A stretch of DNA of 64,000 bases. Origin: an uncultured bacterium. Its GTDB lineage: Bacteria; Omnitrophota; Omnitrophia; Omnitrophales; Aquincolibacteriaceae. The DNA is taken from NCBI GenBank assembly GCA_964482725.1, contig CAYZYT010000009.1:19832-83831 (forward strand). The letters run 5' to 3'. Below, in pieces: positions 1 to 48,000 of the stretch. The notes under the pieces are model-generated. The model saw only the letters and a list, made by a program, of their open reading frames with translations, did not search any database and was not told the DNA's origin. The position numbers and the translations under genes are program-made. The first letter of the stretch is position 1. Each line of letters opens with the position of its first letter.

Positions 1-44
1 AACTCATCGAGACGGCCGCTCCCGCACTTTCTGAAAAATATCAG

Positions 45-3000: not shown

Positions 3001-6000
3001 GCGACGATTTTTTTGAAGGCGGCAAGTACGTTCCTTTCCGGACCCTCGATCTTCAGCCCGACAGTAAAAATAAAGATCTCCTGGATGCGCTTAAGCGTCT
3101 TCATCGCCAATACCCGAAGGCCGGGCTCATCCAGCTTTCACCGGAAGAGCTCAAAAAGGATCCTCTGAGAAACGGGGTCACGGGATTTGATTTTTATCAA
3201 CATTCGAATTTGGGGAAGTTTTTTCTGATCTGGCAGGTTACGGCCCTTCTTATCGAATATGCCCAACATTTGGATTCGACGGATCAAAAAGATCCGGCGA
3301 AGCTGGCTATTCTTTTCCCCATGGTGGCTTCTCCCGAACAGTTGAAGTTCATTCAGCAGGAAATTCTTCCTGTTGCCCGAAAGCTGGCGGTTTTGAACTT
3401 TGAACGAACAGACGAATGGGATACGCAGTCTTTCCTCGCGGTGCAGGCGAAGGTCCAGAAGGCTTCCGACCGGGTTTCCTACGGAATGATGGTGGAAGTG
3501 ATGGATATCCTGAAAAATGAGTCTTTGATGGATTCCATGGTCCAAAACCCATTTGTGGAATTCTATGATATCGGGACTAACGACCTCGAAAAGGAGCTGT
3601 GGGAGAGTATTGTCAAGGCCCCCGTTGATCGAGATGTCGAAGAAGCTCAAAGGCTTTTCGGAAGATTGATGCCTGATCTGGTCATGGGGCTCGACCGTTT
3701 TGCGAGGAAATTGGCCGATTACAATATGGAAGCCGGTCGGGATCCTGCCCGGAAGCAGAAACGAATGTGCGTTTGCGGGCAGATGGGGGGGAACCAGAAA
3801 TTTCTGGCCTTGGTCGAGCGTTGGCGTCGTTTAAAAGTTCCGGTTTCTGTCAGCGTGGGTCCCGAAGACGTTAGCCATGTGCGTCACGCATTGCTGCGTT
3901 ATTCGCGCGTATCGCAATCCTCCTTGGATGAGGTGTTTGAGGTTCCAAACTATATCGATCGCCGGGCGGGAAAGTTGGCAAAGTCCCAAATGTTGATCTC
4001 AAAAAAATTCCTCAAGGTGGCTGAGGCCTGGCAGGAACGCTATGCCCGAATGGGCTACTATCATGGCTTTTACAGGGATTCCCTAGATCCCGTGACGGGG
4101 ATCGGTAGTTTTCGGGACATTCTGGTCATGCGGGATATTTACAAGCTCTTCGGAGGGAAACAGCCCGATCTTAAAGGAGCTGGAGTTGCTGAAGAGGAGG
4201 ATATGACGCGGGAGGAATTTGAAAAGCTTCTGAATTACGAGAAGGGGAAGAGCGGTCTTTTTGACGAGCAGGTTTGCGCGGCCTTACTGAGTGCTTATGA
4301 TTTTCTGAAAGGAGTGAGACAGGTCTACCGGGAAATGCAAGTGAAAGATCCTCAGAAATTTAAAGAGCCGTTCAATCTTCATACCGGAAATCTGAATGAC
4401 TTTCTCGAAGCTTATGAAGGAAAATTTGGCAAGCAGGAATGGTTGGCGAGGACTGATGCCCAACAGCGGCAGGACCAATTCTTTCGTCATTATTACGTCA
4501 TGGCGAATCATGTTTATACGTCACTGACGGGCATGGTCCACGAAGGCTACGAGGATCTTTTTGGGGCCGATTATGAAGATATCGGGCTTGTAACCGTCAT
4601 TCAGACGGAGAGGGATAGCCAACACAAAGAGGAGGCGATTCCCCTGAGGGTCCAACTTCGGAGCGGGATGTTCTTTAAGCGTGAGGTGGGGCACATTTAC
4701 CGGAAAGTCAAAGAGCTCTATATCCCTGAAGCTTATGAGAGGATGGCGTTCGAGCGCTTTTCGAGAAACCCCGCTCTGATGCTTGAGGTCTTTAGCCGGG
4801 CCGTGGTCGATGGGGACGAAGAGGTTCGTATCAGTTACGATCTCCAGAAGATCATGCGTCGGGCCATTCGGAATGCGGGTCCTGTCTCGTCCGGCGCGGA
4901 CGAGATGCTCTTTAAAAATCTGATCAAGGGCTTTTTTGCTCTCGATCATGACATCTCCTATCCGATTTGGCGCATGCACCGCTTCGGCTTTTTCTCGAAA
5001 TTTCTTCCTGATTATGATGCGATGCCCAATTTTTTCCCCGGCGACGGCCGCCGGAGCTCGGTGCATATCCAGACACTGAACGCCATGGAATTTCTGGAAA
5101 AGCTTTTCAATACGAAGGATTTCGCGTTCTTGCGGGCCGGGTTGGTGCTCCAGCAGTTGAAAGTGGATCCTCAAGATCTCACCACGCTCCGTCTGAGTCT
5201 TCTGATGCTCGGGATCGTTCGGGCCAAGTTACGCCTGAAGCCGGGGAATGTTCCGGCGCCGGCCGACATAAAAAAGATCGTCGCGGAGGCGCTTGCGGCC
5301 TTCGGGATATCCGGTCAGTCGGAGCAGGCTGAGCTTATTGCCTGGTTGATCGAGGGGGAACGGACGTTGAACCGCAATGATCTCTCCGCCCCTGAAAAGA
5401 TCCGAAAAGCGCTTGAAACGATCTTCTTGGAGGAAGGGAAAAACATTACCAGCAAAAAGTGGGACATGCTTTATCTCCTTACTTTTGTGATGAGAGCCGG
5501 CCGGGCGGAGCACGAAAAACTCGTTATGTTGAAACGCGAAGGGCCGGACTCCTCTTTGGCGAATTGCGACAAGCTTTATCTCGCCGGGAAGGTGCTGACC
5601 AAGATCTCGATCCCGCCGCAGGAGTTCGAGCAGCTTGTGGAAAAAACGCAGCGTTTGGAGCGGGATGGATTGCAGGAATTGAATCAGCCGGTCCTGATGC
5701 GGTTACTGACCGGTGAAAAAGCCGATCCGGAAGAGGAAATATCAAAGGCGTGGGCGGATTTTTCACGGAGGGAAGCCGATATTTTGGCCTATTATGAGCA
5801 AAACGAGATTCTCCCTTCCAAATACCGGGAAGCCCTCCATGCCGAAATAGACGCGATGGCGCATCAAAGGACTGTTTTCAAAACGATGTTCCTCAAGTAT
5901 GAAAAAATGGTCTCGCGCTATTACTGGAAAGGGCTCGATCCGGAAACGTTAACGCAGCAGCTTATTTGCTGCATTTCCCTGGAGGTTCTCCAGAGGCATG

Positions 6001-9000
6001 CGGATCACCGGCCGATCCTTCTTTTCAATGCGTTGCCGCAGCATTATTCGAATGCTTTTGAAATTGTATTTGGACGGGTGTCCGAAGATCCGGCGCTGCT
6101 AGCCATTTATTCCCGCATTCTCTACCAAAATGATTTTTCGATAGAAACCGTGAACATTCAAAGAGAAAAAGGCGAGGAAGGGAAGTTCATCGTTCGGTTC
6201 ATGGGGAGCTTTCCGCGTGGGAAACAGGACCTCAAGCCGGTGATGACCGCGATGCGAAAAGATCTGGCGGATATCCTTGATGCCCCGGGAGAAGCGAAAG
6301 AGAACCGGCCGGGTTGGTTCGAGGAACGGGTGCGTCGTCTTTATCGGTTGTTGGGGCCGTATTCGGAATTGGCTCTGTTCGCGGCGAATCAAAGGAATAA
6401 CCCGCTCTTTTTCAGAAATACGTTCAATCGCCATGGCGATCTGGCGGTTCAACGGAGCGGTGGGACGACCCCGACTACGGAAGTTGATTTTTTTGAAGGC
6501 GGAGGGAGAGGGAATTCTTCTTACAATACTCTCACGATCAGCACGGAAGATCGCCGGGGGCTCACCGCGCTTGTGACGAACTATCTATCCTTGATCCGGG
6601 GATTGAATATCTCCGATTTTTCTTTCGAAGATACCCTGGGGAAAAAGACCAAGATGATCGTTCGCCTGAATCATCCCCGAAAAGAAACATGGCAAGAGGC
6701 GCTCTTTTTCCGGATCGTCGGGATCTTTTTCTTTTGGAAGGCCCCTTGGAAAAAATCCAAAGATCGGCTTTCTGAAAAAGAAAAGACGCAGATCAAAGAA
6801 GAGTTGACGAACATGTTGGACGCTTTTGAAGCCGTTATTCATCGCGGACATTTCTTGAATACCTATGCCTTGAAGATCAATGCTTCGGGAACGGTCAATC
6901 CTGCGGATGTTGCGGAGAAATCTTCGGAGGCTTCATCGGAACCTGCTCCCATCGAGGTCGAAGAATCGACCGCGGAAGTGATGCCGAAAGGAGCCGTGAC
7001 GAAAGCCGTTGATTTGCCGGAAATCCCTACCGTCGGAGTGGACGATCCGTCGGCCCGCGAGTATACGATTCAGGGGAGTCTCGGTCTTCACGCGATGCCC
7101 TCGCAGTTGCTGGCTAAATTCGCAATCAATCAGTCTTTTCTTGACGAGGTGATTTTTGAGCAGAAGGGTATTCCAACGGACATGAAGTCCGTCCTCAGCC
7201 TTTTGGAGTTGGGTCAGCTATGGGGAGAGCCTGTTGTGATCAGGATCAAAGCCAAGCCGGAGGCGACGCCGGAGCAGCTCCAGGCGTTTTGGACCTGGAT
7301 TGAGGAGCTTCGGGATCCCGGAGATCCGAAAAATCTTCTCTTCTTTGCCCCGATCAAGCGGTCGGAGGTACGAGTTGAGGAAAAACAGTTTAGTGTCGGC
7401 AATCGCCTCGGTATCCATGTGCGCCCCGCGGGTGTTATCGTGACTCTGGCCGAGGCATACGCAGGCTCGCTCAAGATCAAGATCACTAAGAAGAAAGTCA
7501 CCGTCAATGCAGCAAGCATGATGGGGTTATTGACACTCGATGCCGGAAAGGGTGCCAAGGTTACCATTACCGTGGAAGGTCCCCAGGAGCAGGCTAAGGA
7601 ATTCTGGGACAAGCTCGCGTTGCTTGAGGAAGGGGGTGAGTCCCTTTTCCGTTCGGAGATCCGCGGCAAGGGAAAGATCCTGTTTGTGGATGACGATCCC
7701 GGCATTCAAATGACGGTCGCAGATTCCTTGGCTTTTGTGGGGGGCTACGAGGTGGAAAAGGCTTTCAGCGCCGACGAGGCCCTCGAAATATTGAAGAAAG
7801 GCGATTTTGTCCCCGATCTTATTATTTCGGATTTTTCTATGCCGGGGAAGACGGGCGGCGATCTTGTAAAGGCAATCCGTCTAAGCGCAAACGGGATCGC
7901 GAGAATCCCGGTGCTTATGTTCACGGCGGCCGCGGCACAAATGGATATAGAGAATCTTTATCGTGAGGGCCAGATCACCGGGACGGTGTCAAAAACAAGC
8001 GAGCCGGACAAATTCCACGCCCAGGTCGAGTGGATCCTTCAGAATGAGCAGAGTGTCCGGGAGATCCTGGCTCTTGCGGGGGAAGATGTTGCTGCCAAAG
8101 TTGCCCTGGATCAGGAGATCCTCCAATTTATGCTCCATCCAAACCAGAGCCCTCGCGTTCTAGCGAAACTCCTGGAATTAGGGATCCGTGAAGACGTTCC
8201 CCGATGGCAAGAAGTGCTTGGGGAAGTTCAAATACGCCTCCATCGCGACATCGCAAAAACGCAGGTCGCGCGGGGCCGCTCAGAAATACGGAATTTTACG
8301 GACGTGTTCAACTCTATTCTGATCGTGGATGATCGTTTGGCGAATCGTTATGCCAATGTCCAGATATTGAAAGCCCGAGGATTTAAAGGCGTGATCCATC
8401 AGGCTGCCAGTGCCGCCGAGGCCCGGGACATTATGAAGCAGCAGAAAGTCGACGTTTTGATCCTGGACAGGAAAATGCCTGGCATGCTGGGAACGGAATT
8501 TGCCCGGGAGATCCTTCGGCCGTCAGAAAAACTTGGAGTGAGCGTCGTTCTTTTTACCGCTCAAAAGAAAGAAGCGGAACAGGAATTATCGGGGATCGGT
8601 GATCGGGTTGTGATCGTAGAAAAAGAAGGGGATGATCCCGTGGGCAAGATAGTCAGCGCGCTGAATCAATTAGCCAACCGGTCCGAAACGCGGGAGATCA
8701 CTAATCGTCAGAGGATCGCGCATCTGATGTCCTATCTGGTCAATAACATGACGATGCCCTTAGTGATGGCCACAGATCGTGATGCGGTCAGCATGGAGAG
8801 CCTCAAGTCTTCGATCGGTGAGCTTGTCCTGCTATTCCGCATATTGGATGTGAAAGATATGGAGTCTCGTGGGGAAGAGCTTTTTATCCCCGCCGGGGAC
8901 GACAATGAGAACATTATTGTCCATAAAAAGACCATTGGTCTTGGCGGCAAAACGCCAGGTCAGATTTTTAAGGGAGAATCCTTGGAACAATTAGCGGCGG

Positions 9001-12000
9001 AGGTCCGGTTTGATTGGATCCTGGAAGATTTCAAGCCGGAGATCCTTGAGCTTCGTGGATGGAGGGACGCTCTTGCCATAAAGGCTGCGGCGGACCTGAG
9101 CGCTACGGAACGCAGGAACATCGCCCGTATGGCAGAGAAGATCCTTGAGAAAAGTCAGAAGACCGTAGCGCGATTGAGCCAAACCGTCACCCAAGTGAAA
9201 AAGATCCTTGTGGTCGATGATGATGTCGCGAATCGTGCTCTTTTAGAGAATCTTTTAAGGCGCCAGGGGTATACGGTCGTTGTGGCGACCAACGGAGCCG
9301 AGGCGATCAAGAAGCTTGAAGACGAACACGACATTGATTTTCTGATCACGGATTTTCACATGCCCGAGAAAACAGGCGGGGATATTCTCCAGGCGATGGC
9401 CGAGGGGAAACTTTCCAGAAAAATACCTTCAGCCCTCATGAGCGGCGGTTTGAGCGATAGCACGGTGGACCTAAAACTGTTCTGGGCGGAAGGCGTTTAT
9501 GTGGAGTTTCTTCAGAAACCCAACTTGATCAAGCCTCTCTTTGAGATCCTGAAGCGATTTGATGGCCCTGGTGCGGCGGGAGTTGGCCCGGCGAAAGCAG
9601 CCGGCTCCGAAGCTTCCTTTTCAGCGGAAGCCGTTTTAAGGATCAAGAAGATGCTGGAACTTGAAAATCGCGCCGGTGATGTGCTGGAGATGTATCAAAA
9701 AGATGTCGTTGAAGGCCGATTGCCCCGGGCGGCTTCGCTCAAACAGTTGCTAGCCTCGTTCAGGGACGGAGCGGAGAAAGAGTCTAATCTTTACAAGAGC
9801 GCAAGTTGGGTTTTAGGAGAAATAGGGGCCCGTTCCGAAATGCGGGAATCTTCCAACCGTCAAAAGATTATTAATTTGCTGCGTCATTCTCTGAGCGGGA
9901 GGATCCAAATTTTTGAAAGTGCCGAAGATGCCTCGTTCGTTTCGAAGGAAATTTTGAGAGAGACTGTGAGAGAGACCCTCGTAGTCTTTAGAGTTTTTGA
10001 TCTGGAGCTGTTTAAAGCCCGGGGAGGCCAGCTTTTTATCCCGAAAGATGACCCCAATGTATTTGCTTATCAGATCCCTTCCGCGCAGACCCGTGATGAT
10101 GGAAAAGGCGGGAGAGAGCCGGTGAAGGTCTATCAAACGTCTGTTTTTGGAGCGATGGAGAAAGGAAAAACGTTCAGTTTTTTAAATTCCGAGGATCAAG
10201 CGGCTCTGTATCAACTTTCGGAGGAAGTCGGTTTTGAGAAGATCCGTGCTGATTTTAATCCGCAAGTTGTAAAGTTGGAGGAATTCAAAAAAGAGCTTTC
10301 AACGACGGCGGATATAGCCCCTGAATTAAGATCAAGGATCAAGCTTCTTGGCAAAGAGCTCTTGGAAAAGATCGATGAACTTTCCGCGCCTTTGGCTGCG
10401 GAGCCGAGGACGATCACCGCGGTGCCGAAAAATAAGGCAAACTTGCATATTCTTGTGGTGGATGACGAAGACGGCATGCGAACGACGACGGCAAAGTTAT
10501 TGCGAAACAAGGGATATGTGGTCAGTACGGCAGTGAATGGCAAAGACGCCTTGGATAAGCTTCGAGCGGGAGGCATTGAGGGTGTGGTCTCGGATATCAC
10601 CATGCCTGAGATGGACGGGATAGCCTTGACGAATGCGATCATTGATGAGGGAATAAACGTCTTTATTTTTCTTGTAAGCGGTTATAGCTCTACGGACTTG
10701 GGTTTAGAAGGGTTCGCGAAAAAGGGGAAGAAAGTAGGGTTTTTCCAAAAACCCTATTCGCTCTCGGATTTAGACAAAGCAATCAAGGAACATGTCCGCT
10801 CGGAAGTGCGGGGAACGGAGAAAATTCAGAAGGATATTGCGGATCTGAACGGGAAGATCGTTGCCGAGATGGAAAGGATGAGTCTCCGGGTCCTGGGGAC
10901 AAAAGAGATGAAAAGGACTTCGGAAGGTCGTTCGCTTTATAGAACTTTTGATCATATGACGAGGAAAACCTCACGCGATCGTTATGTCAGCCTGGCCGAT
11001 CTGGAGTTTACTCAGCGGGACTTGGCCCTGTTTGTGCAGAATCATGCTCGTCAGGTTGCCTCTGAAAAGGCCGCGCTGGATGTTTTGGGCCGCCACCTGG
11101 ATAATCTCATCACGCAAAGAAAAAAGATCGAAGATCTCTACAAAGAACTTGGCGCGACGCGTTATGCCCCGGTTTCCACGGAGGCTGATAAACAGGCGGC
11201 GCTTGATTATATTCAGACGGCGGGGACTGTTTGGCAGATTGATCTACAGCGTTTGATCGAAAGTGTCCCCGAACAACAGACCCATTTACGGCCCTTATTG
11301 GAGTCTTTCACAGCGCCGCTCAAAACATGGATTTTGAAACCGGGATACGTTTCTCTCGAGAAGGAGCAGAGCCCGGAATATCTCGTTGGGATTTTGAATC
11401 GATTGCACAAGTATGAACGAACCGCATCGGGGGACCTTGCGGAGCATCACGAAGCTGGCACGAGGGATCTGATCACTGCGCCGCGTCGCCTTGAGATGTT
11501 CCAACTGGCCGAAGGGCTGAGCTATCTGATTGCGGCTTCGAAAAATCTGAAATGGGCTCAATCGGAATTCCCATTCGCTCGCGCGGAAGTGCGCGTGGCC
11601 GGAACTGCCGAATATAAAGAATCCGTACGGAATACCTTGCCCGTCGTTGTCGATTTACCTGTGGGGCTGGAAGTTGTTGCGGCGGCCGAGCAGCTGGGGG
11701 TCTATTCCGATCGAGGCATCGCCGCGGAACTTGAAGGGGGCATTTCCGAGGATAATATTAAGCAAGCCCGTCTTTGGATCGCGGTGAAAGTGCTCAAGGC
11801 CATGGGAGCCAGTGACGGACAGATCATGAATGAACGGCTGCGGTCATTCATGGACAAGGTGATGGCGTCGCTTCCGGGTCATATCAAAGCCGTGGCAGGC
11901 TTAGAGGCCGCGAAGGGACCGCAGTTCCACGTCTACCTGGAAGGTCTTAGTGAACAGGATTGGTCCGAGTTTGTCCGGAATTTCCCTGTGGTTTTGGGGA

Positions 12001-12437
12001 TGTTAGTCACTTTGCGCGGCAACCTCTCGATCAATGTGAAGGGTGGGGTCGAAGATGTGCGTCTGATCCAGAAAAAGTTTGATGATCTTATGACCCAAGA
12101 GGGGATCACGCTGGCGGCTGGGCAGCTGCGTATTGTCCCGGCGACAAGCCGCAACCATTTCGAATCTTTTAAAGGCTCCGAAAAAGCCGATGCCTTTATG
12201 GCCCGCCGGGAAGATCACCTGCGTGCGCGGCCCCGGAACGTCAGCAGTTTTTGGATCACCCAGGACCAGGACCGGATGGAGACGCTGGCCGCGGGGATCG
12301 CGACGGCTTTACTTCAGGTCGCTTCGGATAAGCCTATGGACCGGAACACTCTTTACAGCCCTTCCATGTTCCGGGACCTTTTAACGAACGTGATGAATGC
12401 CATCCAAGGGTATCTCCAGATCCAGACAGCGGCCTGA
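45..12437 (+). CDS. Giant multidomain PTS-like phosphorelay protein (EI-like PEP-utilizing module + 2x HPr + 4x CheY-like receiver); possibly 5'-truncated by window edge (no in-frame stop upstream of pos 45, first codon TTG)
   Basis: ORF track 4130 aa. PEP-utilizing signature motifs ILFPMVASPEQL, FYDIGTNDLEKE, CVCGQMGGNQ (cf. EI IMFPMI/FSIGTNDL/CGE-AGD). Two HPr-like GLHAMPS / GIHVRPAG motifs. Four D-D...D...K receiver domains (FVDDDP..IISDFSMPG etc.). Confidence 0.8.
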   Translation: MSPDQVAKSVVQTVSSSSVFSGTLTADQQKENPSTVRFTPAASSEISTSQNSAIMKAAATMGRAEALQLDPRTDAGLGQSATDIDFSARAPAVLRAEIRPKADSFQTPITVQVAPYRQIKMWGEGKRLNIAIPGITVVPLDLQESSGMDKVIAVRLSVFVKVPAASSEDVFKAYRGDVSLAAKKIPALGKNKSIVFIPKTPKSAEVKDYENWQRVVISDNPVKVAIDLGKAIEIFVKARSEQRRPTKFEPVDPDTVKKMMDFMALIQRPFDSGIHFGLFLGVGEMLAGEPASILAAIRRGNSGEAQIRVRSLMERLNKRVVAMPLYFKNLRALAEKLAGMELIDPEYLETLQSSLRKKEEKARSEESSLKSQLGKSQYIKLSSATEERSELRERQVFEGDLTTEKTVRGHAVFLSEDKHDFQWAMAPGGESLAETEYETWFKIVHDGINELFLPPMARHLKIFIQKKREEAIKSKKTSSDPMLKTSHPIALVLGAVQDGVAKNDIKQLEKGSVEESLFLKYVEDMARIFKIQRQIVLRSGGSDEAEKIIKRQFSVALELMEENIAQKEEALDSQRRRLAFFPHAEQQLKDNEMILQEGREGPTPLDDEYREDLEEKNENWREILETKEEVVKAEGRHDLQKMVLKGLEKRLKQGVESELYLGKTDAEGNPLALGMKDGGSLPFVIYSYALKNFLSKIKKFDLETIEGAHGAQSNQDSGTVFRDIAMGLTERLELEMIGGVAPQEKNISIISDGTQRILFVRRPLSANEILREVSRYGADLVGIVATQSSASAHWVIVVRGRNSAPPILFLSEKKYKDMLNKIQLDEDVLLVPSDETVGRGVLKTNPSPEDLDKALRAKKEEDLLAQGERKIGQFPLGISVGVNLSTHDIGDPRASGADNSGLVRKDFLDDKTKREIEDVGQSIGSGDFKFDEWLTVLEKLNFSDMSSKVDIDSLMNNFVGVLTPEAVGRIRTLLGHLRTVDGRVLRDDFFEGGKYVPFRTLDLQPDSKNKDLLDALKRLHRQYPKAGLIQLSPEELKKDPLRNGVTGFDFYQHSNLGKFFLIWQVTALLIEYAQHLDSTDQKDPAKLAILFPMVASPEQLKFIQQEILPVARKLAVLNFERTDEWDTQSFLAVQAKVQKASDRVSYGMMVEVMDILKNESLMDSMVQNPFVEFYDIGTNDLEKELWESIVKAPVDRDVEEAQRLFGRLMPDLVMGLDRFARKLADYNMEAGRDPARKQKRMCVCGQMGGNQKFLALVERWRRLKVPVSVSVGPEDVSHVRHALLRYSRVSQSSLDEVFEVPNYIDRRAGKLAKSQMLISKKFLKVAEAWQERYARMGYYHGFYRDSLDPVTGIGSFRDILVMRDIYKLFGGKQPDLKGAGVAEEEDMTREEFEKLLNYEKGKSGLFDEQVCAALLSAYDFLKGVRQVYREMQVKDPQKFKEPFNLHTGNLNDFLEAYEGKFGKQEWLARTDAQQRQDQFFRHYYVMANHVYTSLTGMVHEGYEDLFGADYEDIGLVTVIQTERDSQHKEEAIPLRVQLRSGMFFKREVGHIYRKVKELYIPEAYERMAFERFSRNPALMLEVFSRAVVDGDEEVRISYDLQKIMRRAIRNAGPVSSGADEMLFKNLIKGFFALDHDISYPIWRMHRFGFFSKFLPDYDAMPNFFPGDGRRSSVHIQTLNAMEFLEKLFNTKDFAFLRAGLVLQQLKVDPQDLTTLRLSLLMLGIVRAKLRLKPGNVPAPADIKKIVAEALAAFGISGQSEQAELIAWLIEGERTLNRNDLSAPEKIRKALETIFLEEGKNITSKKWDMLYLLTFVMRAGRAEHEKLVMLKREGPDSSLANCDKLYLAGKVLTKISIPPQEFEQLVEKTQRLERDGLQELNQPVLMRLLTGEKADPEEEISKAWADFSRREADILAYYEQNEILPSKYREALHAEIDAMAHQRTVFKTMFLKYEKMVSRYYWKGLDPETLTQQLICCISLEVLQRHADHRPILLFNALPQHYSNAFEIVFGRVSEDPALLAIYSRILYQNDFSIETVNIQREKGEEGKFIVRFMGSFPRGKQDLKPVMTAMRKDLADILDAPGEAKENRPGWFEERVRRLYRLLGPYSELALFAANQRNNPLFFRNTFNRHGDLAVQRSGGTTPTTEVDFFEGGGRGNSSYNTLTISTEDRRGLTALVTNYLSLIRGLNISDFSFEDTLGKKTKMIVRLNHPRKETWQEALFFRIVGIFFFWKAPWKKSKDRLSEKEKTQIKEELTNMLDAFEAVIHRGHFLNTYALKINASGTVNPADVAEKSSEASSEPAPIEVEESTAEVMPKGAVTKAVDLPEIPTVGVDDPSAREYTIQGSLGLHAMPSQLLAKFAINQSFLDEVIFEQKGIPTDMKSVLSLLELGQLWGEPVVIRIKAKPEATPEQLQAFWTWIEELRDPGDPKNLLFFAPIKRSEVRVEEKQFSVGNRLGIHVRPAGVIVTLAEAYAGSLKIKITKKKVTVNAASMMGLLTLDAGKGAKVTITVEGPQEQAKEFWDKLALLEEGGESLFRSEIRGKGKILFVDDDPGIQMTVADSLAFVGGYEVEKAFSADEALEILKKGDFVPDLIISDFSMPGKTGGDLVKAIRLSANGIARIPVLMFTAAAAQMDIENLYREGQITGTVSKTSEPDKFHAQVEWILQNEQSVREILALAGEDVAAKVALDQEILQFMLHPNQSPRVLAKLLELGIREDVPRWQEVLGEVQIRLHRDIAKTQVARGRSEIRNFTDVFNSILIVDDRLANRYANVQILKARGFKGVIHQAASAAEARDIMKQQKVDVLILDRKMPGMLGTEFAREILRPSEKLGVSVVLFTAQKKEAEQELSGIGDRVVIVEKEGDDPVGKIVSALNQLANRSETREITNRQRIAHLMSYLVNNMTMPLVMATDRDAVSMESLKSSIGELVLLFRILDVKDMESRGEELFIPAGDDNENIIVHKKTIGLGGKTPGQIFKGESLEQLAAEVRFDWILEDFKPEILELRGWRDALAIKAAADLSATERRNIARMAEKILEKSQKTVARLSQTVTQVKKILVVDDDVANRALLENLLRRQGYTVVVATNGAEAIKKLEDEHDIDFLITDFHMPEKTGGDILQAMAEGKLSRKIPSALMSGGLSDSTVDLKLFWAEGVYVEFLQKPNLIKPLFEILKRFDGPGAAGVGPAKAAGSEASFSAEAVLRIKKMLELENRAGDVLEMYQKDVVEGRLPRAASLKQLLASFRDGAEKESNLYKSASWVLGEIGARSEMRESSNRQKIINLLRHSLSGRIQIFESAEDASFVSKEILRETVRETLVVFRVFDLELFKARGGQLFIPKDDPNVFAYQIPSAQTRDDGKGGREPVKVYQTSVFGAMEKGKTFSFLNSEDQAALYQLSEEVGFEKIRADFNPQVVKLEEFKKELSTTADIAPELRSRIKLLGKELLEKIDELSAPLAAEPRTITAVPKNKANLHILVVDDEDGMRTTTAKLLRNKGYVVSTAVNGKDALDKLRAGGIEGVVSDITMPEMDGIALTNAIIDEGINVFIFLVSGYSSTDLGLEGFAKKGKKVGFFQKPYSLSDLDKAIKEHVRSEVRGTEKIQKDIADLNGKIVAEMERMSLRVLGTKEMKRTSEGRSLYRTFDHMTRKTSRDRYVSLADLEFTQRDLALFVQNHARQVASEKAALDVLGRHLDNLITQRKKIEDLYKELGATRYAPVSTEADKQAALDYIQTAGTVWQIDLQRLIESVPEQQTHLRPLLESFTAPLKTWILKPGYVSLEKEQSPEYLVGILNRLHKYERTASGDLAEHHEAGTRDLITAPRRLEMFQLAEGLSYLIAASKNLKWAQSEFPFARAEVRVAGTAEYKESVRNTLPVVVDLPVGLEVVAAAEQLGVYSDRGIAAELEGGISEDNIKQARLWIAVKVLKAMGASDGQIMNERLRSFMDKVMASLPGHIKAVAGLEAAKGPQFHVYLEGLSEQDWSEFVRNFPVVLGMLVTLRGNLSINVKGGVEDVRLIQKKFDDLMTQEGITLAAGQLRIVPATSRNHFESFKGSEKADAFMARREDHLRARPRNVSSFWITQDQDRMETLAAGIATALLQVASDKPMDRNTLYSPSMFRDLLTNVMNAIQGYLQIQTAA
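2330..3900 (+). other. Domain: PEP-utilizing enzyme (Enzyme I / PPDK-like) phosphohistidine region + PEP-binding TIM barrel
   Basis: SSASAHWVIVVRG (candidate phospho-His loop). ILFPMVASPEQLKFIQQEI, YDIGTNDLEKELW, RMCVCGQMGGNQKFL match conserved EI/PPDK C-terminal motifs. Confidence 0.6.
7077..7320 (+). other. Domain: HPr-like phosphocarrier #1
   Basis: EYTIQGSLGLHAMPSQLLAKFA... resembles the HPr N-terminal His15 loop and fold length. Confidence 0.55.
7380..7630 (+). other. Domain: HPr-like phosphocarrier #2
   Basis: FSVGNRLGIHVRPAGVIVTLAEAY...VTVNAASMMGLLTLDAGKGAKVTITVEG; canonical G-hH-aRPA motif and serine-region LL/G pattern. Confidence 0.65.
7672..8030 (+). other. Domain: CheY-like receiver REC1
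   Basis: KILFVDDDPGIQ...PDLIISDFSMPGKTGGDLVKAI...VLMFTA. Confidence 0.7.
8320..8600 (+). other. Domain: CheY-like receiver REC2
   Basis: ILIVDDRLANRYANVQILKARG...VDVLILDRKMPGMLGTEFAREI...VVLFTA. Confidence 0.65.
9195..9545 (+). other. Domain: CheY-like receiver REC3
   Basis: KILVVDDDVANRALLENLLRRQGYTVVVATNGAEAI...DFLITDFHMPEKTGGDILQAM. Confidence 0.7.
10440..10800 (+). other. Domain: CheY-like receiver REC4
   Basis: HILVVDDEDGMRTTTAKLLRNKGYVVSTAVNGKDALDKL...GVVSDITMPEMDGIALTNAI. Confidence 0.7.
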
Positions 12438-41117: not shown

Positions 41118-41381
41118 CTATTTTTTCTTGAGTTTTGCGAGGAAAAGCGCGATGCGGGATTTTCTCCGGTCTGCGCGGCCGTGCGGGATCACCCCTTTGG
41201 TGACCGCATGATCATAACGGGCAATCAACGTTGCGGCGACGCCCTGGGCCTTTTCGGGCTCTGCGGCGAGTTGGGCCAGTTTTTTGCTGAGAGATTTCAG
41301 CTCAGAAAGAACCGCCATGTTTTTTGCGCGTTTTTTAGCATCACTTCGAATACGTTTTGCAGCGGAACGAATATTGGGCAT
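41118..41381 (-). CDS. rpsT: 30S ribosomal protein S20
   Basis: MPNIRSAAKRIRSDAKKRAKNMAVLSELKS...GVIPHGRADRRKSRI; 87 aa. Confidence 0.85.
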   Translation of the reverse strand: MPNIRSAAKRIRSDAKKRAKNMAVLSELKSLSKKLAQLAAEPEKAQGVAATLIARYDHAVTKGVIPHGRADRRKSRIALFLAKLKKK

Positions 41382-41484
41382 TTCGATGACTCCTTTAGGT
41401 GAAAAAAGTGGCGACAATGTAACACGGGGCTCCTGTTCTGTCAATCCGCATCCCCAAGGACAGAAAAGCGGAAAACATCATCTC

Positions 41485-43071
41485 ATGAAAGCTGCCGCGG
41501 TGGTGGCGGTGATGACCCTGATCGGGCGCATTTTGGGGCTTATTCGCGATATTGTGAGCGCTAAAAGCTTCGGGACGAATTGGCACTACGACGCCTTCCT
41601 CTATGCGTTCATGCTTCCCAACCTTTTTCGCCGCATCGTCGGCGAAGGCGGGCTTACAAGCGCTTTTATTCCGGTTTATAACGAGATCGGAGAAAAACAG
41701 GGGCGTGCGGAAGCGTTCCGCTTCGCGAATATCACGATCAGTTTTCTAAGCCTTGCTCTTTTTGCCTTCATTCTGGGGGTGGAAGGAGTTTTGAATATTC
41801 TCTTAAAGATCGGTTTTCAGTCCCAGACGGTGATGTTGACCCTGGAACTGTCGCGCATTCTCTTTCCTTATCTCTGGTTCCTGTCCCTTTACGCTCTCGG
41901 GATGGGGATCTTGAACAGCCACCGTCACTTTCTTGCGCCCGCCATGGGTCCCGCGATCCTCGATCTTGTGTGGATCGGCGCGGTGCTCTGGGTGCCCTCC
42001 TGGGTGGGACATGATTATCTGGCGAAAATAAGCTGGCTTTCCTATGTGATCCTTTTGGGCGGGTTCCTGCATGTGGCGGTGGAGCTTCCGCCGCTTCGCA
42101 AGCTCGGTTTCAAATTCCACTGGGTCTGGAATACCGGTTATGAAGGTCTTAAGAAGACCTGGAAACTTTTGCTCCCGGTGGTGCTGAGTTTTGCGGTCGT
42201 TCAGATCAATATTACCGTGGATATGACGCTCGGGCTGGCGATTGGACCGGGTGCGAATTCAAGTCTTTGGTATGGGAACCGGCTCATGCAGTTCCCGCTC
42301 GGTGTGTTTGCGCTCGCGATGGGGACCGCTCTTTTGCCGATGCTCGCGCAGCAGATCGCGCGGGGCGAGAAAGAGGCGTCTCGGAAAACACTTTCGTTTG
42401 CGCTCAGGAGTATTTTCTTTATCATCATTCCTTCCTCGGTCGGGTTGATTGTGCTTCGGGAACCGATCATCCGGATGCTTTTTGAGCGGGGCGAATTTGA
42501 TGCCGTTTCGACCGCGCGCAGTTCTGCCGTTTTGCTGGGGTACACGATCGGACTTTTTGCTTTTGCGGGACAAAAGATCATGAATAGCGGTTACTACGCG
42601 GCGCATGATTCAAAAACGCCGATGATGACGTCTGTGATTTCACTCCTCTCGAATATTGTTTTTAGCGTGATTTTGATGATTCCGTTCAAGGAAGCGGGGC
42701 TTGCGCTGGGGACCTCGATCTCCGGTATTCTCCAATTGGGGCAGTTGGTTTATTTCTATCCTAAAAAAGTGGGGGAGTTCCCGTTCCGCGAGGTCGGAGC
42801 TTCTTTCCTGCGCATCCTGCTGGCATCCCTTGTGATGGGCGTGATAGGTCACTATGGTTTAAAGCTTTTTCAGTTTTGGCTTCCGGGGCAAAGCACGAAG
42901 ATGCAACTGCTTCAGGTGTTTGGCAGCATCACCCTTGCCACGGTGGCTTATCTGGGACTGTGCCTCGCGTGCCATGTTCCTGAAGCGAAGGAAGCCTGGG
43001 CCTGGTTCCGGAGAAAGAAAAAGCCCGCGGCCGATCCTCTGGAAGTGGAAAAGTTGATCGATGGTGCGTAA
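41485..43071 (+). CDS. murJ: Lipid II flippase MurJ (MviN)
   Basis: MKAAAVVAVMTLIGRILGLIRDIVSAKSFGTNWHYDAFLYAFMLPNLFRRIVGEGGLTSAFIPVY. Confidence 0.85.
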   Translation: MKAAAVVAVMTLIGRILGLIRDIVSAKSFGTNWHYDAFLYAFMLPNLFRRIVGEGGLTSAFIPVYNEIGEKQGRAEAFRFANITISFLSLALFAFILGVEGVLNILLKIGFQSQTVMLTLELSRILFPYLWFLSLYALGMGILNSHRHFLAPAMGPAILDLVWIGAVLWVPSWVGHDYLAKISWLSYVILLGGFLHVAVELPPLRKLGFKFHWVWNTGYEGLKKTWKLLLPVVLSFAVVQINITVDMTLGLAIGPGANSSLWYGNRLMQFPLGVFALAMGTALLPMLAQQIARGEKEASRKTLSFALRSIFFIIIPSSVGLIVLREPIIRMLFERGEFDAVSTARSSAVLLGYTIGLFAFAGQKIMNSGYYAAHDSKTPMMTSVISLLSNIVFSVILMIPFKEAGLALGTSISGILQLGQLVYFYPKKVGEFPFREVGASFLRILLASLVMGVIGHYGLKLFQFWLPGQSTKMQLLQVFGSITLATVAYLGLCLACHVPEAKEAWAWFRRKKKPAADPLEVEKLIDGA

Positions 43072-44584
43072 AAAAAAGGATGGAGGATGGAGGATGGAGG
43101 ATGGCGTCGAGCGGAAAGCCAAAACGCCCTCCGCCCTCCGCCCTCCGTCCCCCGAACCGCTGAAATTGCTTCGTCCTTTCGTGGAAAGAATGCCGCTCAC
43201 TTCCGGCATCTACCTCATGAAAGACGCCCGGGGAACGATCCTCTACATCGGCAAGGCGAAATCTCTCCGGAAAAGAGTGCGGTCATATTTTAAGATTCCT
43301 GCCCCGATCCCCAAGATCACGATCCTGATGGGAAAAGTGAGGGCGATCGACCACATCGATACCCCGACGGAAGTTGATGCGCTGCTTCTTGAAGCTCATC
43401 TGATCCGCAAGCACCAGCCCCGCTACAATCAGGATCTGAAAGATGATAAGAGCTTTCCGCTTTTTAAGATCACACGCGAGAAATTCCCGAAGCTTTCGGT
43501 CACGCGACAAAAAGGGGACGGCAAGGCGGATTATTACGGTCCCTATACGGACGCGAAACTTTTGCGACAGGCCTTGAATTTGATACAGGCGCTTTTTCCG
43601 ATCAGAAAATGCCAAGCGTTGCCTAAAACGGCATGCCTCTATCATCATATTGGACAGTGCCTTGCCCCGTGTATCAAGCCGGAAGTGAAACCGGAATACG
43701 ACCGCCTGATCCATGAGGTGAAGCGTTTCCTGGGAGGTGGCAAAAAAAGTTTTGTGCAGTATCTCAATGACAGAATGGAGCGGGCGAGCCAGGCGTTGCA
43801 ATTTGAGGACGCGCAATTTTTTAAGGAACAGATCGACGCGCTTTCCAAGCTCCGGAAAAAGCGTTTTCTTCCCAAAAATCCGGGGCAAGGGATTTCTCTT
43901 TCGGCGACGATCGAGCTCAAGCAACGACTCAAGCTGGAGAGGATCCCTGAACGTATCGTTTGTTTCGATGTCTCGAATGTGCAGGGCGATCAGGCGGTTG
44001 CTTCCAAGGTGAGTTTTTACCGGGAGCTGCCCGACAAGTTCGGGTACCGCCGCTACAAGATCCGGGGAGTTTCCGGGATCAACGACTATGCCATGATCGC
44101 CGAAGCTTTGACGCGTATGCTTTGCGGTATCAAGGAAGGCCGGGAAGAATTTATACCGGATCTTATTATGATCGATGGCGGGAGAGGGCATCTCAATACT
44201 GCGGCCAGGGTCCTCGCCCGGGAGGGGATGACCTCGATCGATATTGTTTCCATCGCCAAACAGTTCGAGTGGATCCATTCTCCGAAGTTCCTGGGGCCGC
44301 TTGTCCTGGCCTCGGATTCACCCGCGCTTTATCTCCTAAAAAAAGTGCGGGATGAGGCCCACCGGTTCGCCATCACCTATCACAGGAAGCTCAAGTCAAA
44401 GGCCCTGCAGCGATCGGCCCTAGATGATATCCCGGGGATTGGCGGGAAGCTTAAACGTATCTTGCTCGGTCATTTTAATTCCGTCGAGGAGATCCGGAGC
44501 GCCAGCATGGAAAAGCTTCGTGCCGCTCCGGGTATTGATCCGAAAACGGCTAAGGCGGTTCATACCTACTTTTCACCTCGTTAG
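43061..44584 (+). CDS. uvrC: Excinuclease ABC subunit C (UvrC), short form; start overlaps murJ stop; 5' end contains heptamer repeats
   Basis: GIY-YIG: SGIYLMKDARGTILYIGKAKSLRKRVRSYF; Cys cluster CQALPKTACLYHHIGQCLAPC; C-terminal HhH. Confidence 0.8.
   Translation: MVRKKKDGGWRMEDGVERKAKTPSALRPPSPEPLKLLRPFVERMPLTSGIYLMKDARGTILYIGKAKSLRKRVRSYFKIPAPIPKITILMGKVRAIDHIDTPTEVDALLLEAHLIRKHQPRYNQDLKDDKSFPLFKITREKFPKLSVTRQKGDGKADYYGPYTDAKLLRQALNLIQALFPIRKCQALPKTACLYHHIGQCLAPCIKPEVKPEYDRLIHEVKRFLGGGKKSFVQYLNDRMERASQALQFEDAQFFKEQIDALSKLRKKRFLPKNPGQGISLSATIELKQRLKLERIPERIVCFDVSNVQGDQAVASKVSFYRELPDKFGYRRYKIRGVSGINDYAMIAEALTRMLCGIKEGREEFIPDLIMIDGGRGHLNTAARVLAREGMTSIDIVSIAKQFEWIHSPKFLGPLVLASDSPALYLLKKVRDEAHRFAITYHRKLKSKALQRSALDDIPGIGGKLKRILLGHFNSVEEIRSASMEKLRAAPGIDPKTAKAVHTYFSPR
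43077..43152 (+). repeat. Heptamer-tandem element: (GGATGGA)x3.5 - spacer - (GCCCTCC)x3
   Basis: Seen directly; in-frame at uvrC 5' end (encodes KDGGWRMEDG...PSALRPPSPEP). Confidence 0.7.
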
Positions 44585-44807
44585 TCTCTTGTTTTAAGTT
44601 GTCTGTCGAGAATAAATCGCTGCATTGGCGCTATGCGCTGCTATGAATCGATAGTTGCATTTTAGGCGATTTATAACATTTTAAGCCGCCTCAAGGTCCG
44701 ATTTCCTGCCGAAATAAAATCGTTAAATTTCACAAAAAAAGAGGCTGTGCCCTTGCGGATGTCCGATTATGTGTTATCTTTTCATAAGACTTTAGAAATC
44801 AAAGAAT

Positions 44808-45029
44808 GGCCGTTCCAATACTCATCAATCCCAGCTTCCGAAAAGATGAAATTGGGGCGGCCATAACGACCATTGTTGTAAAAAAATAGCACGTTAAGGC
44901 CGTCCCAATACCATGCAATCGAAGCGTAGCTGAGATTGGGGCGGTCTTGACTACCGTTCAGTAAAATAAATCTGAAGTCAAGGCCGTCCCGATACATATC
45001 GATTTCACGGAGTTGAAATCGGGGCGGTC
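44808..45029 (+). repeat. Tandem array of three ~50-nt hairpin units (GGCCGTyCCrAT-N24-31-ATyGGGGCGGyC) with ~35-nt palindromic spacers
   Basis: 12-bp stems perfect only when G.U pairs allowed (plus-strand RNA); copy 3 carries compensatory CCCGAT/ATCGGG. Confidence 0.7.
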
Positions 45030-45074
45030 GTAATTACCATTAGTTAAAAGAAATAAAAATTACGGCCGAGGCAA

Positions 45075-48000
45075 ATGATCCAAAAAACATCTGCACACAA
45101 GACGCTCATTCCACGCTTTTTCCTCAAGGCGATCAGTCTGTTTACGGTAGTCGTTTTCCTCGGAACTTCCTTTCCGTCCCAGACTCTAGCGCAGATGCCT
45201 TCTACTTCCAATGTTACGGGAGGGATTGACGCCAGTCTTCTTGCCTCGGCCTCCGCCACAAGCGGAAAAGTGCAGGAGATCGTCATCCCTTCCGAACTTG
45301 GAACGATAAGCGAAGCTTATCGCGGGGAACGGGGAACGATGAACGTGGAACGTGGGGCCGAAAACGTTAGCCGTTCCCCGTTAGCCGTTCCCCGGCACGG
45401 CCGTATGGTCGTGCTGATCCAAGACGCTCACGCGGTTCCCGATGCCCAGAGGTCCGTTGAAAAACTGATCGAACATCTCCAGAAAGAATACGGCGTCACG
45501 ACCGTAGCGGTGGAAGGCGCGGAAGGGAAGCTGGACCCCACGCTTTTCCGCCTGTTTCCTGATGCGGAAAAAAGAAAAAGCATTTTTGAAGATTATCTTG
45601 CGAGCGGAGAACTTTCCGGCGCGGCGGCGGCAAGCGTGCTTTCGCCTTACACGGCGGACTATGTCGGGATGGAAGACTGGACGCTTTATCAGGACGGGGT
45701 AGCGGCGTTTCTGGCCGGCCTTGGAAAGCAGGTCGATCTCAAATCTCACATCTCAACTCTCAAATCGGAGCTGCAAAGGCTTAAAACAAAATACTATTCA
45801 GAGGAGGCGCTGGCATTTGATGCCAAACTGGGCGCATGGAATGAAAAACAGAATAATTTGACGGAGCTTTTGAGCTATCTTGCTAAGTTCGTCGAGGTCA
45901 ACGCGCAACGCACAACGCTCAACGTATTATTTGAGGCGTTGGCGCAAGAGAGGAAGGCTGCCCCGAAGCTTGAATCGGAAGTAAAACAGCTTGCCAAGTA
46001 TGTCCACGAGACTGCGCCGAGTGCGAAACTGAACGGACTGGTCCAGGATTACCGGACCGGGCGCTTATCCCTCGCGGCTTTTGCGTATGAGCTTACCGAA
46101 CTCATCTCTGGCAACAAGTCCGTCATTCTGAGCCCGAAGGGCGAAGAATCTCAAAAAAGAGATCCTTCGGTTTTGCCTCAGGATGACGTGAAGATTGTTG
46201 TTTCGGCTGAACTCCGATCGATCATCCAAAACCACGAAAAACTCGTTCAGATGAAAGGGCCTGCATTTATCAAAGAGCTGGAGGCTTTCGTGGAAGACGT
46301 CCGGGCAAAACTTCATACGACACCGGAAGCGAAGGCGGTTGCCGTGCTGGCCAAGCAGTTGCAGCTGCTGGAGAAGCTCTCAACGTTTGAATTGTCGCGG
46401 AGCGAATGGGAAGAACTACGAGCGGGGAACGGGGAACGGGGAACGTGGAACGGGGATGAAAGTATCGATATCTCCCAAAAAAGGATCCTCGATCTTTATC
46501 ACGCACCGCTTGTGGCCGATTTTCTTTCTTTTTATGAAATAGCAATTAAACGCGAAGCCGTTTTTAAGGAGAAGCTTTTTGACCTGTTAGGCGTTAACGT
46601 TTCCCGTTTCCCGTTACCCGCTCCCTACGCCACAAATTCTGTCGCATTTGTGGCGGGCGGCTTCCATACAGGCGGCCTCGCGGCGAAACTCAAGGAACAG
46701 GATATTCCCTATGTCGTCATCTCGCCGGCGATGAAAGAAGTGCCGCAGGACAATCGCTACTTTGAACATATGCAGGGCAAGGTGTCGTGGCGTTCTTACT
46801 TTAAACCGCATAGCGGACGGATTGATCTATTTGATGCCTTTAACCGTGCTACGACAGAAAAACTTTTAGGGGGTAGGGGACAGGGGATAGGCGATAGAAA
46901 ACTAAACCCTAAACCCTATACGCTATACGCTAAGGAATGGCGCGATTCGATCATCCGCAATCTTGCCGCCTCCGGCCGTGTTGCGGAACATGCAAAATAC
47001 ACACATTTCATTGACGAGCAAGCCGCCGGAAATTCCGAAGAGTTTCAGGGGCTCAAACAAACCTGGACCGCGAAACTTGAGCGATTCATCGAAAAACTGC
47101 AGTTCCTTGGTAAGAACAATCAGATCAACGAAGCGAATGTGGCGAAGTTGCTTTCTCAGCCAGCCAACCAGACGCCTTATGCGGTTCCCCTGGTTCCGGG
47201 TGCGACCATTCCCGAAAGCTTTTCAGGAGGTGAACGTGCAACCCACAGGGGCTGGACAGAAAGCGTTCTGACGGACAACGCGCAGCGAGAAATACGAAAA
47301 CCTGAAGCGTTGACCCCTGACCGTAAAACGTTGCCTGCGGCCCAAGGCCGACGTTCCGAGGTGAGAATCTCAGGGGCGAGTCGAGCTGGGGAGAATCTCG
47401 CCCATGATGTGCGTCCGCAAGTTTCGATTGTCATTGAAACGACGCTCAGGGATGAGGTTTTTTTGAACCAACTCGAGAAATATTTTTCCTCGGAGAAGAG
47501 TTCGGAGATCAACAAACAAGTGATCATCGCCGTCGACGGGCGCAGTCAAGCGCTTCAACGCGAACGTTTTGAAAAGCTCAAACGACTGATCAGAGGATTT
47601 GATCCCGAGAAATCAGTTTCCCATGTCCAGTTCGTGCTCGTTCCCGGAACGGGGGCCGTGGGACAGGGGATCCGGAACGGGATTGCCGTTTCGACCGGGG
47701 ACGTCGTTGTTTTGGCAGATGATCGCGCGCCGCTAGACGACGAGATCTATCTTGCTTTGGCGTCACCCGTTCTTCAGAAAAAATCAGAGGCAGTCTATGA
47801 TGCGTCCGGTCTTTACTCGGCGATCAAAACGCGGACGATGAAAGAAGTGCGGTGGAGCAAACGCGGGCCTTTCAGAGACGCAGAGATCAAAGCCAAATTT
47901 GAGCGTCTTGCTTATAAAGCTCAAGTATCTTCCGTTTTATCGTCCGAAGAGCAGGCGCGTATTTCTGCTCGCCCAGGTGTCTCAATTTTCGAGCGCGTTC

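Follow-up and report, generated by a model that had tools for sequence, protein, structure and literature searches.

The locus and its heptamer arrays

The window analysed here is a stretch of 64,000 nucleotides from an uncultured bacterium of the Omnitrophota (contig CAYZYT010000009.1, positions 19,832 to 83,831), with a G+C content of 52.5% and two open frames that run past its ends (3-12437 and from 45057 to beyond 64000). The second of these, giant open reading frame (ORF) 2, has an ATG at 45075 and lies downstream of murJ (41284-43071) and of uvrC, which ends at 44584. The subject of this report is a family of short tandem arrays with a period of seven nucleotides, the heptamer arrays, found in the murJ-uvrC spacer and towards the 5' end of giant ORF 2. 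In a related species the loss of one unit from such an array splits the giant ORF, and the arrays are considered here as possible on/off switches of the contingency-locus type.

A sequence-only reading of this DNA had described four loci, each consisting of about three tandem 7-mers, a spacer, and further 7-mers that are imperfect inverse complements of the first. All four (H0 to H3) were recovered with their inverted arms by Tandem Repeats Finder (TRF) and by an independent period scan. The arrays are in fact of about 3.3-4.9 units, with a mode of about 4, and two arrays without inverted partner (45736-45766 and 45897-45926) had been overlooked. The features are the following, with slots denoting the array positions shared by orthologous genes.

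43077..43104, + strand: left arm of H0, (AGGATGG)x4.0, perfect; murJ-uvrC spacer or uvrC leader
43125..43152, + strand: right arm of H0, (CGCCCTC)x3.3 at 43125-43147, then CGTCCCC
45075..47300, + strand: 5' part of giant ORF 2, encoding the signal peptide plus an N-terminal domain (about 650 amino acids); carries all intragenic arrays
45322..45359, + strand: left arm of H1 (slot A), CGGGGAA CGGGGAA CGATGAA CGTGGAA CGTGGGG; by TRF and period scan (GGAACGT/CGGGGAA)x4.3 at 45326-45355
45364..45395, + strand: right arm of H1 (slot A), CGTTAGC CGTTCCC CGTTAGC CGTTCCC; by TRF and period scan (CCGTTCC)x3.4 at 45371-45394
45736..45766, + strand: slot B array, (ATCTCAA)x4.4, without inverted partner
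45897..45926, + strand: slot C array, GTCAACG CGCAACG CACAACG CTCAACG, that is (NNCAACG)x4, unpaired
46125..46185, + strand: heptamer-free in-frame hairpin (GUCAUUCUGAG...CUCAGGAUGAC) in an indel-rich segment of low predicted local distance difference test score (pLDDT)
46420..46456, + strand: left arm of H2 (slot D-left), (CGGGGAA)x4.9 at 46423-46456, three units perfect
46597..46623, + strand: right arm of H2 (slot D-right), (CGTTTCC)x3.3 at 46598-46620; 150 nt 3' of the left arm, with a conserved coding segment between them
46865..46897, + strand: left arm of H3 (slot E), TAGGGGG TAGGGGA CAGGGGA TAGGCGA; (TAGGGGA)x4.4 at 46867-46897
46902..46935, + strand: right arm of H3 (slot E), CTAAACC CTAAACC CTATACG CTATACG; (CTAAACC)x4.6 at 46902-46933

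The period-7 array family is a real and highly non-random feature. A period scan of the window with a cut-off score of at least 11, and with the expectation taken from mononucleotide shuffles, gave six period-7 arrays against 0.04 expected, and nothing at the other periods from 4 to 12 save one period-9 run. All arrays of the window fall within 3.9 of its 64 kb (43077-46935), and the other 60 kb holds none. Translation also confirmed that the peptides encoded at H1 and H2 run parallel (RGERGTMNVERGAENVSRSPLAVP and GNGERGTWNG...VNVSRFPLPAP), as had been proposed.

Inverted pairing and predicted folding

The arms of H1 (31 nt, 10 nt apart) are 77% complementary and those of H2 (27 nt, 150 nt apart) 89%, and the arms of H0 pair with one A-C and one G-U per heptad (minimum free energy -44.6). 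Compared with dinucleotide shuffles, the predicted folds are strong for H0 (z -5.1, 0 of 200 shuffles as good) and H2 (z -4.4, 0 of 200), with H3 at z -3.0 (2 of 200) and H1, weak by the folding test alone, at z -1.5 (17 of 200). Among 95 arrays of the window and the related loci described below, 63% have an inverted partner of at least 70% identity within 300 nt, as against 6-16% in controls with direct, reversed-only or complement-only partners. The inverted arrangement of the arms, first read from the sequence, is confirmed.

The mismatches between arms are periodic, with two to three per heptad, and in 37 arm pairs comprise 25 G-U, 47 A-C and 136 other types. An excess of G-U on the sense strand, looked for in these 37 pairs as an indication of which strand folds, was not found, and a reading of the arms as RNA structure is therefore unsupported. 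An Rfam scan of 42000-48000 in E-value mode gave nothing beyond faint likenesses to miRNA hairpins, which at 27-30 bits stay below the thresholds of 60-97, and generic hairpins in the 5' 2 kb are only mildly enriched once the heptamer arrays are left out. Small extra hairpins occur beside H1 at 45303-45322 and 45395-45414 (ACGATAAGC/GCTTATCGC and GCACGGCC/GGTCGTGC), and a perfect 9-bp hairpin (GCCACAAAT/ATTTGTGGC) lies at 46629-46655, in conserved coding sequence just 3' of H2.

Distribution in related loci

Species-representative genomes were scanned with the alignment of the N-terminal domain, which yielded 73 loci (820 kb), nearly all from metagenome-assembled genomes (MAGs) of Omnitrophota and often as several paralogous loci per genome. 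These 820 kb contain 66 period-7 arrays, against 0-5 for each other period between 4 and 13. A slightly lower threshold gave 79 arrays, whose positions were counted from the point where the domain match begins: 67 are at 0-2000 nt, within the initial 2 kb of the giant gene, and 71 between 500 nt before and 3 kb after the start of the match, while seven lie at -2000 to -1000, the zone of the murJ-uvrC spacer hairpins in orthologous loci. Zero arrays were found in approximately 270 kb of giant-gene sequence further downstream and almost none further upstream, and only eight arrays occur in 611 kb outside the domain region. Array length peaks at 3.5-4.5 units, the range of 69 of 87 arrays, and the association with heptamers recurs in distant paralogs of 25-30% identity. 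The expectation of additional loci elsewhere in the genome was thus borne out as far as their existence goes; they are confined to one gene region and not dispersed. Distant homologs of the N-terminal domain are also present in MAGs labelled Planctomycetales (L073) and Elusimicrobia (L072, L077), where binning errors are possible, and L073 carries heptamer arrays within the domain match (7029-7095).

Slots, unit turnover and mosaicism

Aligned as proteins, 11 orthologs have their arrays in the same poorly conserved column blocks. Of these slots, A corresponds to H1, B to the array at 45736, C to that at 45897, D-left and D-right to the arms of H2 and E to H3, and slot F has no counterpart in the window. 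The heptamer unit at a given slot differs from genome to genome, and units that are not G-rich are found at orthologous slots (GTACGGA, GCGCAAC, GCCACGG, ATCTCAA, AGTCTCC). Slot D has six unit types in eight genomes, including the following arm pairs.

Window: GGGGAAC with GTTTCCC
L006: CGGATGG with CATCCTY
L009: GCCACGG with CGTGGCC
L010: GCGCAAC with GCGTTGC
L013: GTACGGA with CCGTACA

The two arms of slot D, which are separated by about 150 nt of conserved coding sequence, co-vary from genome to genome, the average complementarity being 0.86 with the arm of the same genome and 0.61 with the arms of other genomes. In one long-read contig of 1.97x coverage and therefore unreliable detail (L004), an extra near-perfect hairpin (CCCCTCACCCCTCCCTCTCCC...GGGAGAGGGCAGGTGAGGG) stands beside the left arm of slot D at about 5925-5975, and an unrelated hairpin occupies the position equivalent to 46125-46185 of the window.

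The AlphaFold (AF2) model has a mean pLDDT of 62, with values below 50 in H1 (residues 83-107), the 46125 hairpin, the right arm of H2, and H3; the left arm of H2 lies in a predicted loop and slot B in a confident long helix. The slots are thus mostly predicted disordered loops. In slot B three heptamers correspond to seven codons, so that (ATCTCAA)n encodes an exactly heptad-periodic amphipathic stretch (DLKSHISTLKSELQ) in the confidently predicted helix.

H1 is absent from two orthologous loci (P0002/L011 and P0007/L005). The NNCAACG unit type occurs in slots B, C and D; other genomes have it in the murJ-uvrC spacer, and L016 has it at 8083, beyond slot E on the downstream side. The GGGGAAC type occurs in slots A and D, and H3 of the window is similar to an element that L012 has at another slot. 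Units are shared (at most one mismatch, any rotation or strand) by 22% of pairs from other loci of the same genome and by 5.3% of pairs from different genomes, with a chance level roughly estimated at 2%. Overall identity between L012 and L015 is 86%, and some stretches reach 100%, but at slot B they are 72% identical with a different unit type, and slot E is unalignable. Likewise, about 180 nt around H1 (45279-45458) are 81-90% identical to L016 (6163-6340), with 30 identical nucleotides in the H1 right arm, against 39-68% in the flanks and 47% between the proteins. Such mosaic tracts suggest recombination or conversion rather than point mutation.

Reading frame and loss of single units

The arrays are translated and under selection for an open frame. 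For 71 arrays that lie in a unique open frame, the consensus unit contains a stop triplet in eight cases (11%), compared with 21.7% of random genomic heptamers, and in five of these eight a changed unit stands at precisely the point where the stop would otherwise be read in frame. Both arms of H3 avoid stops in this manner: TAGGGGA is changed to CAGGGGA in the third unit, and CTAAACC gives way to CTATACG where TAA would be in frame. The plant-type telomere repeat AAACCCTAAACCCT, to which attention had been drawn, consists of two units of one array whose third is changed to avoid the in-frame TAA, and its occurrence is a coincidence. It had further been supposed that three heptamers, as 21 nt, keep the frame. 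This does not describe arrays of mostly about four units; the total length of the insertion keeps the frame, and a change of one unit breaks it.

Such changes are observed in the P0005 cluster (90%), whose members have N-terminal ORFs of 460, 280, 258 and 794 residues.

L013, CAISGE010000077.1: reference, giant ORF intact
L001, ERZ27245625: 14,021 nt identical to L013 but for the slot D-left array, which has three GTACGGA units in place of four; ORF split into 460 + 9158 residues
L080, ERZ27313066: 11,541 nt with one substitution relative to L013 and one AGTACGG unit lost in slot C; ORF split into 280 + 9302 residues
L081, ERZ18626558: arrays as in L013, identical to 8316 and unrelated beyond; N-terminal ORF of 794 amino acids, ending past the point of divergence

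Variation in heptamer copy number by slippage, which had been suggested as a check on the elements, is thus seen in three assemblies of one related species (L013, L001 and L080), where two independent one-unit indels toggle the frame. The two slipped arrays are the two most perfect arrays of this gene, and we infer that the 7-nt losses are unlikely to be an artefact of assembly at k=141. The divergence of L081 after 8316 probably reflects a chimeric scaffold end, although the giant gene may instead have been rearranged internally. Between L011 and L079, which are further apart, there are 40 substitutions and no gaps. L004, which contains many errors, was left out of the frame arguments. In L012 (=L003) codon 548 (about nt 2270) is an in-frame TAG that takes the place of part of the conserved GKVSW motif, intact in L015, in a gene conserved elsewhere along its length, and represents either a pseudogene or an assembly or sequencing error.

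The murJ-uvrC spacer

A spacer hairpin of the H0 type is present between murJ and uvrC in most orthologs. In seven of 12 orthologous loci an in-frame stop lies between this hairpin and uvrC, and the usual N-terminus of UvrC starts about 36 codons ahead of YIGKA, so that H0 is basically intergenic. From these comparisons H0 is probably a spacer or leader element and not clearly inside uvrC. The proposal that the elements are all frame-preserving inside genes therefore fits H0 only in that the frame of the window is open. The frame between H0 and uvrC remains open in L006 as well, and in both loci the GGAGGATGG units (43077-43104 in the window, 4317-4343 in L006) are tandem combinations of a Shine-Dalgarno sequence and an ATG. 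One ATG in three is in the uvrC frame, with GGAGG 7 nt 5' of the in-frame ATG (43094 in the window). The two loci would then share a hairpin-encoded N-terminal extension of UvrC (MEDGV.RK..T.S..RPPS).

Interpretation

Contingency loci undergo phase variation by slipped-strand mispairing in simple sequence repeats, as in the opa genes of Neisseria, which have CTCTT repeats in their 5' coding region, and at the hmw promoters of Haemophilus, which have 7-bp repeats. We favour, with a probability of about 0.55, the interpretation that the heptamer arrays are selected on/off switches of this type which act by slippage. The arrays, usually of about four units and on this reading hypermutable, occupy fixed slots in the first 2 kb or so of the giant genes and also the murJ-uvrC spacer about 2 kb upstream, and the gain or loss of one unit by slipped-strand mispairing would shift the frame because seven is not a multiple of three. 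In a gene that runs to more than 6,000-9,000 codons, translation would then stop after 260-460 of them, and the frame would be restored when the unit is regained. The arrays would in this way be switches at the 5' end of very costly surface-protein genes. The switching may be reversible and selected for. The periodic inverted arms could pair in several registers and stabilise a looped-out unit, and a nearby arm could compensate a change of +/-7 within a short loop. Template switching or gene conversion may keep the arms complementary, and recombination between alleles and paralogs may spread the unit types.

In function, the nearest counterpart is a contingency locus like that of Neisseria opa. 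As in contingency loci, non-triplet tandem units lie in the 5' coding part of genes for secreted or surface proteins and a change of one unit toggles the frame, several paralogous loci occur per genome, and the neighbouring variable segments are mosaic, as recombination predicts. Of the four features that define a contingency locus, the fourth being reversible and frequent switching within a population, three were found: the non-triplet tandem repeat inside an ORF in the giant ORF of the window itself, and varying unit number and frame switching in a related species and not in the window. Unlike contingency loci, the Omnitrophota arrays have a 7-nt unit in only about four copies, stand at fixed slots with 4-8 arrays per gene, are mostly inverted-paired and differ in unit by slot and genome; they also belong to an uncultivated phylum and a target gene of more than 6,000 codons.

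Several observations weigh against the arrays being switches. No copy-number variant was available for comparison with the arrays of the window, a metagenome scan for close relatives giving one locus, at 50% identity and from the species of L011. In the genome collection 72 of 73 loci are in frame through the domain, the exception (L071) being a scaffold gap (N10), and OFF states are found in one related species only, where they could be one-way loss-of-function alleles. The arrays have 3-5 units and are often imperfect, and classic contingency loci are longer. Some orthologs, such as L011, are without nearly all arrays, which are therefore dispensable, and a frameshift action is impossible for the H0 spacer hairpin in loci where it is intergenic. 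Since the slot C array slipped without a nearby inverted partner, slippage can proceed in the absence of one. A gene would need no more than one switch, and the 4-8 arrays per gene with their inverted partners are unexplained by switching alone. Neither the role of the inverted partner nor the origin of the 7-nt period is accounted for by slippage switching.

The main rival, which we consider rather unlikely, is that the arrays are a neutral by-product of a lineage-specific mutational bias, i.e. heptamer duplication together with fold-back or template switching, and survive only in insertion-tolerant loops of this domain, the frameshifts being ordinary deleterious or loss alleles. The location of the elements in predicted loops with pLDDT below 50 and in indel-rich alignment columns is what such a bias would leave, as is the complete absence of H1 from L011 and L005, and heptamer repeats are over-represented without known function in other bacteria (PMC4692102). 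A bias alone leaves unexplained, however, why the arrays are confined to the 5' 2 kb, with none in the other 60 kb of the window and none in the approximately 270 kb of downstream giant-gene sequence that is itself rich in non-conserved linkers. The re-use of the same slots with new units and the recurrence of the association in paralogs of 25-30% identity also argue against it.

The inverted pairs might, in an unlikely but more elaborate form of the switch, be a dedicated and maintained hypermutation cassette system, in which hairpins able to slide by one unit would raise +/-7-nt slippage, a change in one arm could be offset by the other within a disordered loop, and the arms would re-template each other and be copied between slots and paralogs. 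If this were true, every giant gene, of which a cell has several, would acquire on/off switching of its own together with variable peptides in its loops. Quasipalindrome correction, a mutational mechanism of intramolecular template switching, would keep imperfect inverted arms complementary while their sequence changes, as in slot D; it may be regarded as a candidate mechanism only, and it leaves the 7-nt period unexplained.

It is also conceivable, and in our view decidedly unlikely, that the hairpins are conserved nucleic-acid structures, as mRNA or single-stranded DNA, which function in mRNA stability, in pausing of translation or transcription where a very long ORF begins, or as recognition sites, the heptamer period being secondary. 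That hairpin positions are kept while the sequence is replaced, that whole units in the two slot D arms vary in concert over a distance of 150 nt, and that an intergenic hairpin of the same build stands in the murJ-uvrC spacer of most orthologs would agree with this, as would the strong predicted folds. Against it stand the periodic mismatches without a sense-strand G-U excess, the lack of an Rfam match and the only mild enrichment of generic hairpins; moreover, about one third of the arrays are unpaired, slots B and C included, and arms are wholly missing in some orthologs.

Rickettsia palindromic elements are in-frame, hairpin-forming insertions in protein-coding genes, and the heptamer elements resemble them in being hairpin-forming DNA that is translated in frame in surface-exposed, poorly conserved protein parts. 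Unlike them, the heptamer elements have no single consensus, consist of tandem heptamers, are undispersed, and have arms that can flank pre-existing coding sequence, as in slot D. An origin as miniature mobile elements of this kind, or resembling miniature inverted-repeat transposable elements, inserted in frame at permissive sites is highly improbable. In its favour are the same unit types in different slots and genomes (NNCAACG, GGGGAAC), the resemblance of H3 to an L012 element of another slot, and the empty sites for H1 in L011 and L005. A family consensus at many unrelated sites was not found; copies are confined, seven of the eight arrays outside the domain region lying 1-2 kb upstream of it. 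The conserved coding segment flanked by the slot D arms is already present in array-less homologs, so that the arms are not one contiguous insertion, and shared termini or target-site duplications were not seen.

It is scarcely credible that the arrays act as G-quadruplexes on transcription or translation, as the G-rich arms had suggested, since, although the left arm of H2 has at least four GGGG tracts with 3-nt loops, that of H3 has three to four, and G-rich heptamer arrays of about four units from Xanthomonas and Nostoc form quadruplexes in vitro (PMC4692102), at least four tracts of at least three G per array are found in some arms of the window only, H0 having only GG tracts and slots B, C and most orthologous slots none, the GTACGGA, GCGCAAC, GCCACGG, AGTCTCC and ATCTCAA units of orthologous slots cannot form quadruplexes, and the potential is not a conserved property.

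Further candidates were set aside. A sequence-specific repeat-binding protein is unlikely, one gene carrying several unrelated units, and integron attC sites, invertons and programmed-frameshift heptamers were dropped, the elements being in-frame tandem arrays with loops down to 6-10 nt and without slippery X XXY YYZ sites.

Comparison with heptamer repeats of other bacteria

Heptamer simple sequence repeats are known as GGGAATC in Xanthomonas and GGGGAYT in Nostoc, with about four units preferred and convergent pairs frequent (Rehm et al. 2015, PMC4692102), and in Geobacter metallireducens four tandem GGGACCG units are found at 49 sites within and between genes (PMC2700814). The Omnitrophota arrays share with these the period of seven, the number of about four units, the inverted pairs and the intragenic position of some copies. 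The Xanthomonas, Nostoc and Geobacter families, however, each have one genome-wide consensus and are dispersed and mostly intergenic, in contrast to the more than 10 unit types, many not G-rich, the restriction to one gene region and the documented frameshifting variants of Omnitrophota. The arrays therefore agree with the dispersed families in unit number and convergent pairing, and differ from them in having neither a single consensus nor a genome-wide, intergenic distribution. Why a number of bacterial lineages have an excess of heptamer repeats with about four units is an older puzzle, on which the strictness of the 7-nt period, the fixity of the slots and the co-variation of the inverted arms also bear.

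If the slippage reading is true, a repeat-based frame switch at the 5' end would be a simple control mechanism for costly giant genes. It would also explain the split-ORF calls of giant genes in many assemblies, and contingency loci, so far a matter of pathogens, would gain a counterpart in an environmental phylum that is uncultivated. The papers searched on Omnitrophota giant genes contain no mention of heptamers, hairpins, frameshifts or phase variation.

The giant gene and its leader

The products of Omnitrophota giant genes reach tens of thousands of residues and are thought to serve in attachment to, or predation on, other cells. Giant ORF 2 encodes a multi-domain protein with GT2, inositol monophosphatase, APH, patatin, cytidine deaminase, MarC, VWA and AAA_5 domains. 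The homologs of its first 742 residues all belong to Candidatus Omnitrophota, at about 50% identity. The N-terminal domain has no Pfam match ahead of the GT2 domain, and a profile search of the PDB gave only coiled-coil noise. A Foldseek search against the PDB gave nothing at E<=0.001, weak matches to erythromycin esterase and BcR135 being unusable.

Just 5' of the giant-gene ATG, the leader at 44808-45078 consists of three tandem units of about 84 nt, each with an imperfect hairpin (GGCCGTYCCAAT ... ATTGGGGCGGYC). Rfam gives no above-threshold match for these leader repeats, and at 45013-45040 there is a weak promoter-like site.

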